A DNA stretch of 64,000 nt from a virus. The stretch is taken from the IMG/VR virus record IMGVR_UViG_3300031578_000001; one strand, given 5' to 3'. Every line of letters begins with the position of its first letter. Positions within the stretch are counted from its first letter, which is position 1. This document shows positions 2,528 to 41,626 of the stretch, in pieces. The notes below the pieces were generated by a model that saw only the letters and a list, made by a program, of their open reading frames with translations, ran no database searches and had not been told where the DNA came from. A program made the position numbers and the translations under genes.

Positions 2528-3534
2528 CAGATAACTCCTCCTGTCAACGATGTGAGGTCTTCCCTCGTGAGACACTTCGGATCTTTGGTCGGAACGATCG
2601 GAGCCACCATGAGTCCGGCCTTGCGGATTTTCATCACGATTCTCTCGACTCGTTTTTGACCTTCGGGATCAGGATCGAGCATCACGAACACGATCCTGGG
2701 TTGGTTACAGACGATCTTGGCCACGCGTGGTTGGTTGAGATAGAGACCGAAGAGACCTACTGAGTGAACTCCGATGGAGGCGAAGTGGGCGACATCCAGC
2801 GGTCCCTCGAGAACGAATAGGGGTTTACCCGATGCGTGGTGGAGCAGATGTTCGGCGTAGAGGAAATGACCTGCCTTGAATTTGAAGAACGTGAAGTATT
2901 TGCTTCGTGTGGTCTTCCTTTTGATCGGACGAGCCTGCGCCCCGATGCAGATAAGCTTCCCGGATACCCTCGACATCACAGGAATCAGGATGCTATCTTT
3001 GACCTCGATCTCGGTCTTGTCGTATTTCTTGATCGTGGCCTTTTCGATCCACGCGAAGTTCATGAATCGTGCCGTCTGCTCCGGGATGCCTTTCGACGAC
3101 AGAAATTCCAGAGCATGGGGAGGAAGTCCTACGGCGAGGTACTTACGAAGTTCAGATGAGTAGTTGATGATGGATAAGGGTTTGTCTTTTTTCTCCTTGG
3201 CTTCAATAGTCCCGAGTTTCTTGAGAGCCGTGTCCACCTCTCGAACCCATTCGGCCAGGTTTCTGAATCCTCCTCTATGGAGCACATTCAGATCCATCAC
3301 CGCGTTGTAGAGACTGACGCGATACTGGCACATGTGGCAGCGGACAGTAGACGGTCCGGTATCGTCTACCGATACAGTCATGGAGGGGGTGCCGTCCATC
3401 CCTCCTTCGTGCCGGTAAGGTGCCATGAGGCACGAAAGGGACAGATGGCTGTCACCGGATTCACCGATACTTGATGTTATGATTCCGGCGTTCTGAAGAA
3501 CACTTAGGACTTTCATTAAATTCGTCCTGTCCAT
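2527..3534 (-). CDS. dnaG: DNA primase (Zn-binding domain + TOPRIM)
   Basis: N-terminal C..H..CHMC; TOPRIM motifs LFVLEGPLD and MLDPDPEG. Confidence 0.85.
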   Translation of the reverse strand: MDRTNLMKVLSVLQNAGIITSSIGESGDSHLSLSCLMAPYRHEGGMDGTPSMTVSVDDTGPSTVRCHMCQYRVSLYNAVMDLNVLHRGGFRNLAEWVREVDTALKKLGTIEAKEKKDKPLSIINYSSELRKYLAVGLPPHALEFLSSKGIPEQTARFMNFAWIEKATIKKYDKTEIEVKDSILIPVMSRVSGKLICIGAQARPIKRKTTRSKYFTFFKFKAGHFLYAEHLLHHASGKPLFVLEGPLDVAHFASIGVHSVGLFGLYLNQPRVAKIVCNQPRIVFVMLDPDPEGQKRVERIVMKIRKAGLMVAPIVPTKDPKCLTREDLTSLTGGVI

Positions 3535-6234: not shown

Positions 6235-7542
6235 TCATCGATCTAAATATCCCCTCTTCTTCGACCTCTTCTCAGTATTCGTCGATTCGACGTGAACCGC
6301 GATCGGAGCCCACTGCATGTCGAAGAAGTTCCAGTGGTGAAGCCAAGGCAGCTGGGGTGCTGCGTCACGACCCTTCCCGATCCGGATGATGATCTGCTTG
6401 TTAATCTTTTCCCGCTTGCGCTGGATCAGGAAGATCGTGTTGTTCGAGATGTGGTTGAACTTATCCGTACCACCTACGGCAAGGTCATCGGAAGACCACG
6501 TTCCTATGGCGGATTTGTTGAACTGGGCGGTCAAGAACCAGTGGCGCTTCGAGGCCATGGAGACGCGCCGAACCTCGATGAGGTTCTCGTTGATCTTCTC
6601 CCAGCCCTTCTTGTCTTCTGAGCCCTCGGGGAAGTCATAGAAGGCATCGGCCATGACAGCGTGCGCCCCGAACAGATCCGCCTGCGCCTCGACGGAGTAG
6701 ACATCTGTTATCGCCTCTGGGTTCATGATCCTGAGATTGTTCCAGTAGCCGATCCTATTGGCCGCGTCCGCGAGCGTCTTCTCGAAGATGGGTTCTTGCT
6801 CCGGGAGCAGGGTTCCCTTGATCACGCGATCGAAGTTCACCGTGGACGCCATAGCGGCGAGCCTTCGCATGATCTCAGTGTCGAGCATCTCCATGGAGGC
6901 GATGACTACCTTGAATCCACAGGCCGCGGCGTAGAGACACTGGATCAGGCAGAGCCACGTCTTTCCCACGCTGGACCTGGCCACGACAGTCGTGATGTTC
7001 CCGAAGCGCCACTTGACGAAGGCGTCTATCAGAACTCGGAAATGAGGATGGATCGGGATGCCCGGCATGTTTCCGGCTTTAGTCATGAGATACTCGTTCC
7101 AGACAGGCTGGGCGAGTTCTGCCGGCGACGAGGACTTTCCAGTCGCGCCTGAATACCGAAGTTCGACCTTGCGGATCTGCTCGGCCGTCATCTTGAGCAT
7201 CTTCCTGGGATCGTGGACATGTTTGTTATATTCTATGGCCGAGAACTGGATGGCGTTGGCAAGATCGGCCTCGAGGTAGCCATCGACCAACTGCTCCCAG
7301 TAGACCGACGCTTTCGAGGGACACTGGCTCGCTGCCGCAACCGTGATTCCGCCGATGTCCTCGCACATGGACTGAAGCCGCTTGACGCCCGGGAGCTGGT
7401 TATGCTTCTGGTAGAACTTGATGAGGCGGTGGAAGGCCTCGTCGTAGGGCGGCTTCAGGATGCTTGGATCGAATCCGTTCTGGTACAACTCCCAGAGTTC
7501 TCCATCGATCGCCTTCCTGAGGAGTTTCGATTCGATTAACAT
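6235..7542 (-). CDS. dnaB: Replicative DnaB-like helicase
   Basis: Walker A ARSSVGKT, SMEM, Walker B-like VMADAF, TAQFNK, KGRD. Confidence 0.85.
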   Translation of the reverse strand: MLIESKLLRKAIDGELWELYQNGFDPSILKPPYDEAFHRLIKFYQKHNQLPGVKRLQSMCEDIGGITVAAASQCPSKASVYWEQLVDGYLEADLANAIQFSAIEYNKHVHDPRKMLKMTAEQIRKVELRYSGATGKSSSPAELAQPVWNEYLMTKAGNMPGIPIHPHFRVLIDAFVKWRFGNITTVVARSSVGKTWLCLIQCLYAAACGFKVVIASMEMLDTEIMRRLAAMASTVNFDRVIKGTLLPEQEPIFEKTLADAANRIGYWNNLRIMNPEAITDVYSVEAQADLFGAHAVMADAFYDFPEGSEDKKGWEKINENLIEVRRVSMASKRHWFLTAQFNKSAIGTWSSDDLAVGGTDKFNHISNNTIFLIQRKREKINKQIIIRIGKGRDAAPQLPWLHHWNFFDMQWAPIAVHVESTNTEKRSKKRGYLDR

Positions 7543-39582: not shown

Positions 39583-39617
39583 AGAAAAGGAGGGCCGGGA
39601 TATTATTCCCGGCCCCC
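39583..39617 (-). terminator. Intrinsic terminator downstream of the CRISPR locus
   Basis: Minus strand: gggggccgggaataatatcccggccctcc then ttttct. Confidence 0.7.
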
Positions 39618-39853
39618 CTGTGGATGGTATGTGCCCGGCCCCGTAGGACCGGGCACTGCACACGGGAAAGTCCACCCCGGGACAGCCCGGGGCGAATGGG
39701 GAACATGTCCCCTTCCTGCTTCATCGACGACTGCTCCTCCACCAGATGGCTTCAGAGACTTACATCTCTCCACAGGCGTTAGGTTTCCGCGCACTTCGCG
39801 GTACCATGCACCCGCCCCTTTCGGAGCGGGAGATCATTCAGACTGGCTGTATA
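39618..39853 (-). ncRNA. Candidate tracrRNA/scaffold RNA
   Basis: Hairpins at 39631-39656, 39675-39692, 39787-39801 and 39811-39830 (GAAA loop on minus strand); anti-repeat at 39654-39670. Confidence 0.45.
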
Positions 39854-40186
39854 CCAACCTCTCTATGTGCGTGGGTTAGACGCTCGAACTTCACGTTAGT
39901 CTTCCCACGGCATCCAGTCTCCCCCATGTGCGTGGGTTAGACTCCTCGATGCTGATCCGGACCGATTCGGCGCCCCAGTCCTCCCCGTGTGCGTGGGTTA
40001 GACAGACCGACGTTTTGGGATTCGCCCGAGAAGCGCCAGTCCTCCCCGTGTGCGTGGGTTAGACCATCCTGTCGTTGACGACTGCGTCAGTGGGCTCCAG
40101 TCCTCCCCGTGTGCGTGGGTTAGACATCTTGAGTAGCTTCCTCGGCTCATGGATGTGCCAGTCCTCCCCGTGTGCGTGGGTTAGAC
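39854..40186 (-). CRISPR. CRISPR array: 6 repeats of 29 bp (last two degenerate), 5 spacers of 32 bp
   Basis: Repeats start at 40158, 40097, 40036, 39975, 39914 and 39854 (28 bp). Minus-strand consensus GTCTAACCCACGCACACGGGGAGGACTGG; period about 61 bp; degeneracy at the left end sets the orientation. Confidence 0.97.
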
Positions 40187-40209
40187 ACCAATATACGGTA
40201 TCCGAAGAA

Positions 40210-41496
40210 TCAGCGGATCGCAACACCAAGACCATCCTGCATGAGATTCTTTACGGCATTGGTCTCCCTTTCCTCGCTCATCCCGCATTCGTCACATACG
40301 AATATCCGTTTACTGAGCGGGAATTCTTCTTTCACGTATCCACATGAACTGCATTTCTTACTCGACGGGAAACCAGTATTCAACACCAGAAGGTCTGATC
40401 CGAATTTGGGACACTTGTATTCAAGCATTTTCCAGAAGATTCCCCATCCCTTATCGGCTATGGCGCGGCTGTACTTCTTCTGTTCAAGGAGGCGATCGAT
40501 CCTCCAGTCTTCGATGATGATCGTTCTGAAGTTCTTAGCGAGATAGGTGGATAGTTTATTAAGGAAGTCAGCCCGTACGAATCGAACTCGGCGATGGATG
40601 AGTGCTCTTCTGGTTCTGCTTTTCTTATAGTTGTTGGATACAGGCTTCACCGGTTTCCTGTCGGGCCTCATGGGCCTTCCGAGCCTACGTCTCGCCACTT
40701 CCCTATCTACCCGTATCAGCTTCTTGAGAGCATGATCGAGAGGGGAAGGGTGATCTATCCTGTATGTATTCCCGTGGACAGATACGGATCCGTCAAATTT
40801 GTCCGAGTCCATCTCAGGCGTTTCCCCGTCAGATCGCATGATCGTGAATGGAAATTTGAGGCCGAGGTGAACGGCTATGGCTGGCCCGTTCCTCATTCCG
40901 GGTTTAGCCGATTTATCCTTGCAGCGAAATGATATATACCATCGATCCACATCACGCTTCACCGTGACACCTATGATGTCTCCTCTGGCGACGTGTGTTG
41001 TTTCTTTCGTTCTGATGGTCTTCAGTGTGGGAAGGGTTACAGATCGATCGACCGCCCTGATGGTGCGGCCGTAGAGATGGAAAGACTCCTCCGACGGAAT
41101 CGCTTTCCTCCATTTGGGGAATCCAACTTTCCTTCTCTGCCCCTTAGGCTTCTTTCGGTTCGAGAAGAACGCTGAGATTGCTTTATCGAGATCCCTGAAC
41201 GCACCTTCAACAGTGCCTCTCGCAGTTCCGAGTATTCCGACTTCGATAAGTCGCTCTTTTCCACGATCACTGTTTATCCATACTGTCCACTCCTTCTGGA
41301 GGGATATTGATTTCGGCATGCGTTCCCTATTGTCTTTCGGTAGATTGAGCCAGTCTTTGATCCTTCCGAGTGCCCAGTTCCAGGCGTATCTGGCCATTCT
41401 TGCATGGCGCTTCATTTCCGTTATCTGGGCATTGTTCGGGTCGAGTTCGTATTTGAGAACCTTGACTCGGTCTGGTTGCGCATCGGTCTTAGCCAT
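40210..41496 (-). CDS. tnpB: TnpB/Cas12f-like protein, predicted nuclease-dead
   Basis: IS605 OrfB HTH-like N-terminus (ARYAWNWAL), GFPKWRK, RuvC-I AVHLGLK, RuvC-II IIIEDW, PSSKKCSSCG/CDECG, RuvC-III EERETNAVKNL. Confidence 0.9.
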   Translation of the reverse strand: MAKTDAQPDRVKVLKYELDPNNAQITEMKRHARMARYAWNWALGRIKDWLNLPKDNRERMPKSISLQKEWTVWINSDRGKERLIEVGILGTARGTVEGAFRDLDKAISAFFSNRKKPKGQRRKVGFPKWRKAIPSEESFHLYGRTIRAVDRSVTLPTLKTIRTKETTHVARGDIIGVTVKRDVDRWYISFRCKDKSAKPGMRNGPAIAVHLGLKFPFTIMRSDGETPEMDSDKFDGSVSVHGNTYRIDHPSPLDHALKKLIRVDREVARRRLGRPMRPDRKPVKPVSNNYKKSRTRRALIHRRVRFVRADFLNKLSTYLAKNFRTIIIEDWRIDRLLEQKKYSRAIADKGWGIFWKMLEYKCPKFGSDLLVLNTGFPSSKKCSSCGYVKEEFPLSKRIFVCDECGMSEERETNAVKNLMQDGLGVAIR

Positions 41497-41521: not shown

Positions 41522-41626
41522 TAGCGGGGGCAGGAATCGAACCTGCGACCTCCGGTGATTACACCAATAGGTTCCCGTGGGTTCCAAAGGCGAGTGCCGG
41601 TGTGCCTACCACTGCACCACCCCGCA
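41522..41626 (-). tRNA. tRNA-like gene with a 32-nt expansion of the anticodon loop (anticodon unassignable)
   Basis: Acceptor TGCGGGG/CCCCGCT+A, D arm GTGC-AGTGGTAG-GCAC, variable AGGTC, T arm GCAGG-TTCGATT-CCTGC; 41 nt lie between the CCGG/CCGG stem halves. Confidence 0.7.

Follow-up and report, generated by a model that had tools for sequence, protein, structure and literature searches.

A phage locus joining a TnpB-like gene with an altered RuvC triad, a CRISPR array and an omegaRNA-derived candidate tracrRNA

Systems in which a TnpB-type protein is associated with a CRISPR array, of the kind considered here, were first described in 2023-2026. TnpB has been recruited to CRISPR arrays independently about 50 times, including a V-U group with a non-canonical RuvC-I (PMC10691335). 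In TranC (Jin et al., Cell 2025, doi 10.1016/j.cell.2025.09.004), the transposon RNA has been split into a tracrRNA and a crRNA, as related in PMC13565253 and bioRxiv 10.64898/2026.03.27.714800. Another such system, Cas12r-CRISPR, is carried by the Thermus Lalka phages (Trofimova et al., bioRxiv 10.64898/2026.04.20.719267). TldR proteins are RuvC-substituted derivatives of TnpB (bioRxiv 10.1101/2023.11.30.569447), and inactivated type V effectors that act by binding are represented by Cas12m and Cas12c (V-M and V-C; PMC12669027).

We analyzed a window of 64,000 nucleotides from a virus (IMG/VR record IMGVR_UViG_3300031578_000001) that contains a gene-array-RNA unit on the minus strand (39588-41496). 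In the direction of transcription, the unit includes a TnpB-family effector gene (40210-41496, encoding the 428-aa protein P0001), a 23-nt leader between the stop codon of this gene and the first repeat (40187-40209), a CRISPR array (39854-40186), a structured RNA of about 234 nt that we describe as an omegaRNA-derived scaffold and candidate tracrRNA (39620-39853), and an intrinsic terminator with 13 pairs and a U-rich tail (39588-39619) that closes the unit. No credible open reading frame is present in the approximately 234 nt that follow the array.

TranC resembles this locus in having a TnpB-sized effector beside a short array, a lack of adaptation genes, and a guide RNA that originates from a split transposon RNA; some TranC systems are also phage-borne and target phages. 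TranC proteins are active nucleases, whereas the RuvC triad here is His/Glu/Glu; the TranC scaffold is located between gene and array, whereas here it follows the array; and the repeats reported for TranC are 32-38 nt long, compared to 29 nt here. The linkage of effector and array is that of TranC and type V-U systems, but the canonical RuvC Asp/Glu/Asp is absent as judged by the residues themselves. Cas12r-CRISPR has in common with our locus a phage TnpB-like effector gene followed, after about 15-23 bp, by degenerate 29-bp repeats with 31-33-nt spacers, as well as the lack of adaptation genes, a host type I-E module proposed as the spacer source, and spacers directed against rival mobile elements. 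Cas12r is an active nuclease (the D238A substitution abolishes interference), no tracrRNA was detected for it, and its branch is specific for thermophiles, whereas the present system comes from soil and sediment metagenomes. The altered RuvC triad and the omegaRNA-derived RNA with an anti-repeat after the array also distinguish our locus from the Cas12r system as described.

TldR proteins share with P0001 the substituted RuvC residues, the shortened C-terminus, a frequent location in phages and, presumably, an action by binding only. However, each TldR relies on a single guide RNA encoded next to it, the fixed guide of which is directed at a host promoter, whereas here we find a five-spacer array and a separate guide-less scaffold, and at least one spacer originates from a phage gene. 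The canonical TnpB proteins of IS200/IS605-IS607 elements with their omegaRNAs (e.g., ISDra2, 8H1J) are similar in protein family and RNA scaffold; in contrast to them, the scaffold here is clear of the 3' end of the gene and has no adjacent guide, and the catalytic Asp residues are replaced. Cas12m and Cas12c provide a precedent for interference without DNA cleavage as a known outcome of RuvC alteration, but they are larger proteins from other lineages. Cas12m is not known to need a tracrRNA, and Cas12c uses a scoutRNA. It is a combination of features that sets this locus apart, namely a conserved altered RuvC triad, a multi-spacer array of type I-E geometry, and an omegaRNA-derived scaffold after the array.

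P0001 is recorded on a 182-kb contig, and the genes in its neighborhood are typical of a large phage (a DnaB-like helicase, a thymidylate synthase, a ligase domain, and a PHROG topoisomerase family). Among the 10 neighboring open reading frames tested, no cas families were found, including adaptation genes, and neither a transposase nor transposon ends were seen at the locus. We found no minus-strand promoter-like site between the effector gene and the scaffold RNA, which makes their co-transcription likely. A tRNA-like gene of 105 nt (41522-41626, minus strand) is located 25 nt upstream of the effector gene; it matches the whole Rfam tRNA model with 46.7 bits, while ARAGORN makes no call, pointing to a long insert, and it might serve as a promoter, a processing site or an attachment site. 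Scans of IMG/VR for protein relatives, the scaffold motif, the repeat and spacer 1 returned no matches, and a BLAST search with the array against the INPHARED phages also gave none.

The effector matches the NCBIfam family guided_TnpB with 158 bits (cut-off 100) and the Pfam families HTH_OrfB_IS605, OrfB_IS605 and the Cas12f1-like TNB domain. Its score is 104 bits against ISDra2 TnpB (8H1J) and 54 bits against LaTranC from the PDB, the sole TranC reference compared, where the similarity is weak and confined to the C-terminal region. A tblastn search with P0001 against phages retrieved only ordinary TnpBs with identity of at most 29%. Alignments including active relatives, 8H1J and 9YYG place His210, Glu329 and Glu411 at the positions of the Asp/Glu/Asp triad of RuvC. 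P0001, which has a short C-terminal tail, forms an effector clade with P0002 (79% identity), P0003 (63%) and P0004 (49%), as well as P0122 and P0121, which were found via a profile search among 1.8 billion representatives. The His/Glu/Glu triad is common to P0001-P0004 and P0122, and all three RuvC residues are lost in P0121 (Ala, Gln, Gly). In the same alignments, Asp/Glu/Asp is intact in the nearest relatives beyond the clade, whose C-terminal tails are longer. The conserved His/Glu/Glu suggests that the complex binds DNA rather than cutting it, and by its residues P0001 is probably a non-cutting protein. The altered site might retain metal binding, and since His and Glu are conserved rather than randomly decayed, some residual activity, e.g., on RNA, is possible.

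A TnpB-like gene is linked to an array in the window and in several other loci of this clade: L001 together with L088 (P0002), L005 (63% protein identity), L085-L087 (the paralogous P0122 lineage), and L084 and L022 (the P0121 lineage). The array in the window contains six repeats of 29 nt and five spacers of 32 nt. The four repeats nearest the gene (40158-40186, 40097-40125, 40036-40064, and 39975-40003) are identical, and the two distal repeats (39914-39942 and 39854-39881) are decayed; the location of the decay at the array end far from the gene fits the minus-strand orientation. The 29/32 geometry is that of type I-E arrays, and the base pattern of the repeat is like that of type I-E repeats. 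We found neither a stable Cas6e stem-loop nor a cognate cas operon: the window repeat has a weak, non-I-E fold of -10.7 kcal/mol, and the L005 repeat is unfolded at -0.8 kcal/mol. No cellular array with the window repeat was found in the 185,579 representative genomes scanned, where the repeat gave two single non-array matches in Chloroflexia MAGs, close to the chance expectation. In the last 8 nt of the leader (40187-40194), L001, L005, L084 and L022 share with the window a conserved motif similar to the 3' end of the repeat; it may be a partial repeat or an integration signal. The L005 array (2664-3440) has about 13 repeats, the length of which varies from 27 to 29 nt through gain and loss of CA units, and its terminal spacers are shortened.

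Spacer 1 (40126-40157) is identical to positions 7190-7221 of the window at 25 of 32 nucleotides, compared to 23 for the best of 500 shuffled spacers. These positions are within the phage's own DnaB-like helicase gene (6235-7542, minus strand). Five of the seven mismatches fall on third codon positions, and the two peptides differ only by Ile/Val, Glu/Asp and Leu/Met exchanges, which indicates that spacer 1 was taken from the homologous helicase gene of a related phage. The resident helicase copy is predicted to escape spacer 1 by mismatch. For the other four spacers no match was found; their weak matches to the window (22/31 and 19/25) were judged to be due to chance. The addition of new 32-nt spacers is probably the work of a host type I-E adaptation module. 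We propose the host type I-E Cas1-Cas2 as the spacer source because the phage region has no adaptation genes while the array combines type I-E geometry with a uniform spacer length.

A metagenome scan for two invariant motifs of the RNA behind the array yielded 74 loci, most of which have the motifs across the 3' end of an ordinary TnpB gene with an intact RuvC, the expected site of an omegaRNA scaffold. We used 11 canonical omegaRNAs that overlap the 3' ends of active TnpB genes, and no array loci, for a covariance model (R1). Its consensus opens with a 5' hairpin and closes with a terminal hairpin ahead of the guide; its other elements are a 5-bp helix joining the two motifs and a covarying inner stem. 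In the window R1 has a single match, 39678-39808 on the minus strand (39.6 bits, E 1e-8), with no second match inside the effector open reading frame; it also matches the RNAs of L088, L085, L005, L084 and L022. These matches show that the RNA behind the array descends from the omegaRNA of the TnpB family and is a displaced scaffold of that kind. The homology extends over the 5' two thirds of the RNA, and the diverged 3' third, where the anti-repeat is located, is left unaligned. Two origins of the anti-repeat are conceivable: the terminal omegaRNA hairpin, of which it would be the 5' strand, or a helix that was inserted in the linker before the guide. Among loci from hot-spring metagenomes, L039 (467-1069) and L076 have two scaffold copies 525 nt apart with only a C-terminal TnpB fragment nearby, and many others carry an omegaRNA scaffold without a detectable TnpB gene.

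The scaffold region has by far its more stable fold on the minus strand, at -146.9 kcal/mol (z -6.25) compared to -121.4 kcal/mol (z -4.26) for the plus strand, and the terminator is also on the minus strand, in support of this strand as that of the RNA. Near the 5' end, we confirmed a hairpin with a GAAA tetraloop that an earlier sequence-only reading had noticed on this strand (39811-39830, 8 bp); it is present in L088 and is not conserved in L005. It is followed by hairpin P1 (39787-39801), which is conserved in canonical omegaRNAs, and by the first invariant motif of 11 nt (39768-39778). Five bases of this motif pair with the second invariant motif of 12 nt (39711-39722), closing a variable hairpin, and the pairs between the two motifs are unchanged in all 11 canonical omegaRNAs. 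Hairpin A (39698-39712) has a tip of variable length that is expanded in L005. Hairpin B' (39675-39692), with 7 bp and a high G+C content, is directly 5' of the anti-repeat and covaries in L005, and in the G+C-rich, conserved hairpin C (39631-39656, 11 bp) three pairs are compensatory in L005. Across the three orthologous RNAs, the consensus fold includes 76 pairs, 14 of them with compensatory changes; in this fold the anti-repeat between B' and C is single-stranded except for a weak 5-bp long-range alternative. Behind the array, about 360 nt past the effector stop codon, the scaffold begins, and a hairpin and the terminator come after it. It neither overlaps the 3' end of tnpB nor is directly followed by a guide, as an omegaRNA would be at the transposon end; what follows hairpin C on its 3' side is short and in part conserved among the orthologs, unlike a guide.

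The anti-repeat (39654-39673, minus strand) had been proposed in the sequence-only reading, and its geometry was reproduced in every detail. Its core (39658-39670) pairs with nucleotides 12-24 of the repeat over 13 contiguous base pairs, 11 Watson-Crick and 2 G-U, with a 3-bp extension (39654-39656, repeat nucleotides 9-11) across a 1-nt bulge at 39657, and it lies between two G+C-rich hairpins (39675-39692 and 39631-39656) upstream of the terminator. RNAduplex adds 2 further pairs on the spacer side, between 39671-39673 and repeat nucleotides 26-27. The 3-bp extension shares bases with the outer stem of hairpin C, so the two structures compete. Co-folding with the repeat, which the same reading had suggested as a check, also gave the helix in the dimer MFE; in the window the gain is -17.4 kcal/mol, which was matched by none of 100 shuffled repeats, and the dimer MFE structures of L088 and L005 contain the helix as well. 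By loop-tolerant RNAduplex energy, 127 of 2000 shuffles (6%) equaled or surpassed the observed duplex, which is not significant. A contiguous helix equal to or better than the observed one was obtained in 4 of 3000 dinucleotide shuffles of the 234-nt RNA, a statistic that was taken up after the energy test had given no significance. Two comparable helices occur elsewhere in the 128 kb of window strands. The pairing by itself is thus only moderately significant, and the case rests on the identity of the RNA and on the position and conservation of the anti-repeat in related loci. With these taken together, pairing of the folded RNA with the CRISPR repeats is very probable.

In two orthologous loci, with 79% and 63% protein identity, gene, array, scaffold and terminator follow one another as in the window, with the anti-repeat in the same place. 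The P0002 locus was split by assembly into L001, containing the gene and the start of the array, and L088, containing the end of the array, the RNA, the terminator and the next gene; the locus has the same repeat core and the same anti-repeat core as the window. After the third repeat of L001 (1790-1939), the last ~110 nt of the effector gene recur in slightly diverged form together with the leader and a repeat, reflecting either chimeric assembly from two strains or a genuine tandem duplication. The informative changes among the orthologs come from L005 only. This locus has the same layout, and its RNA contains both invariant motifs of the window RNA. The L005 repeat has three differences in the paired part, and its anti-repeat differs as well, so that the duplex consists of 3+5+8 bp around a small internal loop. 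Two changes in the repeat and two in the anti-repeat keep pairs; a G-U pair becomes A-U by a repeat change, and another becomes G-C by an anti-repeat change. When the partners of the window and L005 are swapped, one combination is much less stable (-16.8 vs -27.6 kcal/mol). As to covariation in homologous loci, which had been named as a further check, both partners have changed in L005 with pairing kept, but no position shows a strict double compensatory pair.

In the P0122 lineage, the repeat is an unrelated 36-nt sequence, and a homologous scaffold is again found behind the array. The L085 anti-repeat directly follows the second invariant motif and forms 9 perfect base pairs plus 9 more with the repeat (-38 kcal/mol). 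In L085 (2701-5194), as well as in L086 and L087, only 2 nt separate the end of a tyrosine integrase gene from the RuvC-altered TnpB-like gene that follows it, with a ParB-like gene upstream; a functional link between the integrase and the RNA-guided protein may exist in these loci. The P0121 lineage has a different order, with the gene followed by the scaffold, a hairpin with a U run, the leader and the array, and its repeat self-folds into a hairpin resembling the terminal omegaRNA hairpin. Candidate anti-repeats in L084 and L022 were rejected, as they offered scattered pairing only, or 5+4 bp overlapping a hairpin. In those array loci that show pairing, the paired part of the repeat stops 2-7 nt before the spacer, which puts the spacer at the place of the guide in a canonical omegaRNA.

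The RNA thus carries an anti-repeat that exceeds chance and is conserved, and it is located beside the array, as is characteristic of the tracrRNA class. The proposal that it is a tracrRNA or scout-like partner of the array gains support from its omegaRNA homology, from the conserved anti-repeat in L088 and L005, and from the separate pairing in L085-L087. Two considerations count against this role: a helix of 13-18 bp is short for RNase III, and Cas12r, with the same array geometry, works without any tracrRNA (bioRxiv 10.64898/2026.04.20.719267). The latter also favors an explanation by descent, in which the array arose from the duplicated last omegaRNA hairpin and guide, the complementarity is ancestral, and the scaffold now serves as a fixed-guide, TldR-like omegaRNA or is idle, with crRNAs loading without it. 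This explanation accounts for the similarity between the 3' ends of the repeats and the guide-adjacent end of canonical omegaRNAs, as well as for the self-folding repeat of L084 and L022, where no clear anti-repeat is present. However, complementarity was kept between the window and L005 though both partners changed, and it was re-created with a different sequence in L085. Furthermore, the repeats of the window and L005 have lost the self-hairpin, so a partner strand is needed to form it, and the short, partly conserved stretch after hairpin C does not look like the guide that a fixed-guide RNA would carry. We therefore regard this explanation by descent as unlikely.

The 29/32 geometry, the type I-E-like base pattern, the absence of adaptation genes nearby, and the occurrence of helices of similar length by chance in the window would all fit a type I-E mini-array, processed by host Cas6e and used by host Cascade, with the TnpB-like gene and the RNA as unrelated cargo and the complementarity fortuitous. 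This is highly improbable given that the stable I-E-type stem-loop is absent (L005 has none at all), that gene, array and RNA are linked in three protein lineages, one of which has a 36-nt repeat not of type I-E, that the anti-repeat co-varies with the repeat, and that the window repeat is present in no cellular array of the genomes scanned. The earlier suggestion that the array serves the TnpB-like protein, and not a host Cascade alone, is further supported by the missing I-E-like stem-loop and by the lack of a host array with this repeat. Alternatively, the anti-repeat could act in cis, pairing with repeats of its own primary transcript for cleavage or 3'-end stability outside any effector complex; the likely co-transcription of the unit and the position of the anti-repeat between stable hairpins just before the terminator are compatible with such an element. 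But the rest of the RNA is a conserved protein-binding omegaRNA scaffold, which a mere processing signal would not need, and we consider a purely cis-acting role very unlikely.

We favor, with a probability of about 0.75, the interpretation of the unit as a phage-borne intermediate between TnpB and type V CRISPR systems, in which an omegaRNA-derived tracrRNA ties the guides of the array to the TnpB-like protein. According to this model, the whole unit would be made as one transcript, or from an unrecognized internal start, that stops at the terminator. The omegaRNA-derived RNA no longer has a guide of its own and bears in its place, between two conserved hairpins, the anti-repeat, which would pair with nucleotides 9-27 of each 29-nt repeat. 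As the helix would stop a few nucleotides before the spacer, the latter could take the guide position of an omegaRNA, and the dual RNA would be loaded into the TnpB-like protein. The resulting complex would bind DNA and block replication or transcription without cutting, and RNA processing by it is conceivable. Its targets would be related phages, as one spacer from a homologous helicase gene indicates, so that the system would act in competition between phages. A bolder version, which we offer only tentatively, is that the clade represents the first array-fed, tracrRNA-dependent, binding-only effector of TnpB level, i.e., a TldR supplied by a CRISPR array, that silences replication genes of rival phages without cleavage. 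The arrays of the clade would meet the host's type I-E specifications for loading by its Cas1-Cas2, and the omegaRNA-derived tracrRNA would divert the crRNAs to the phage protein.

Under the interpretation favored above, the locus shows the step from a transposon guide RNA to a tracrRNA plus crRNA. The relatives with an intact omegaRNA and the three array lineages of differing layout permit a side-by-side comparison of this step, which here is linked to an apparent loss of DNA cutting and to conflict between phages. If binding without cutting is true, the 428-aa effector would amount to a very small programmable repressor of natural origin, served by a multiplex array. If a host type I-E module indeed feeds the array, the phage would be exploiting spacer acquisition by its host for the benefit of its own effector.
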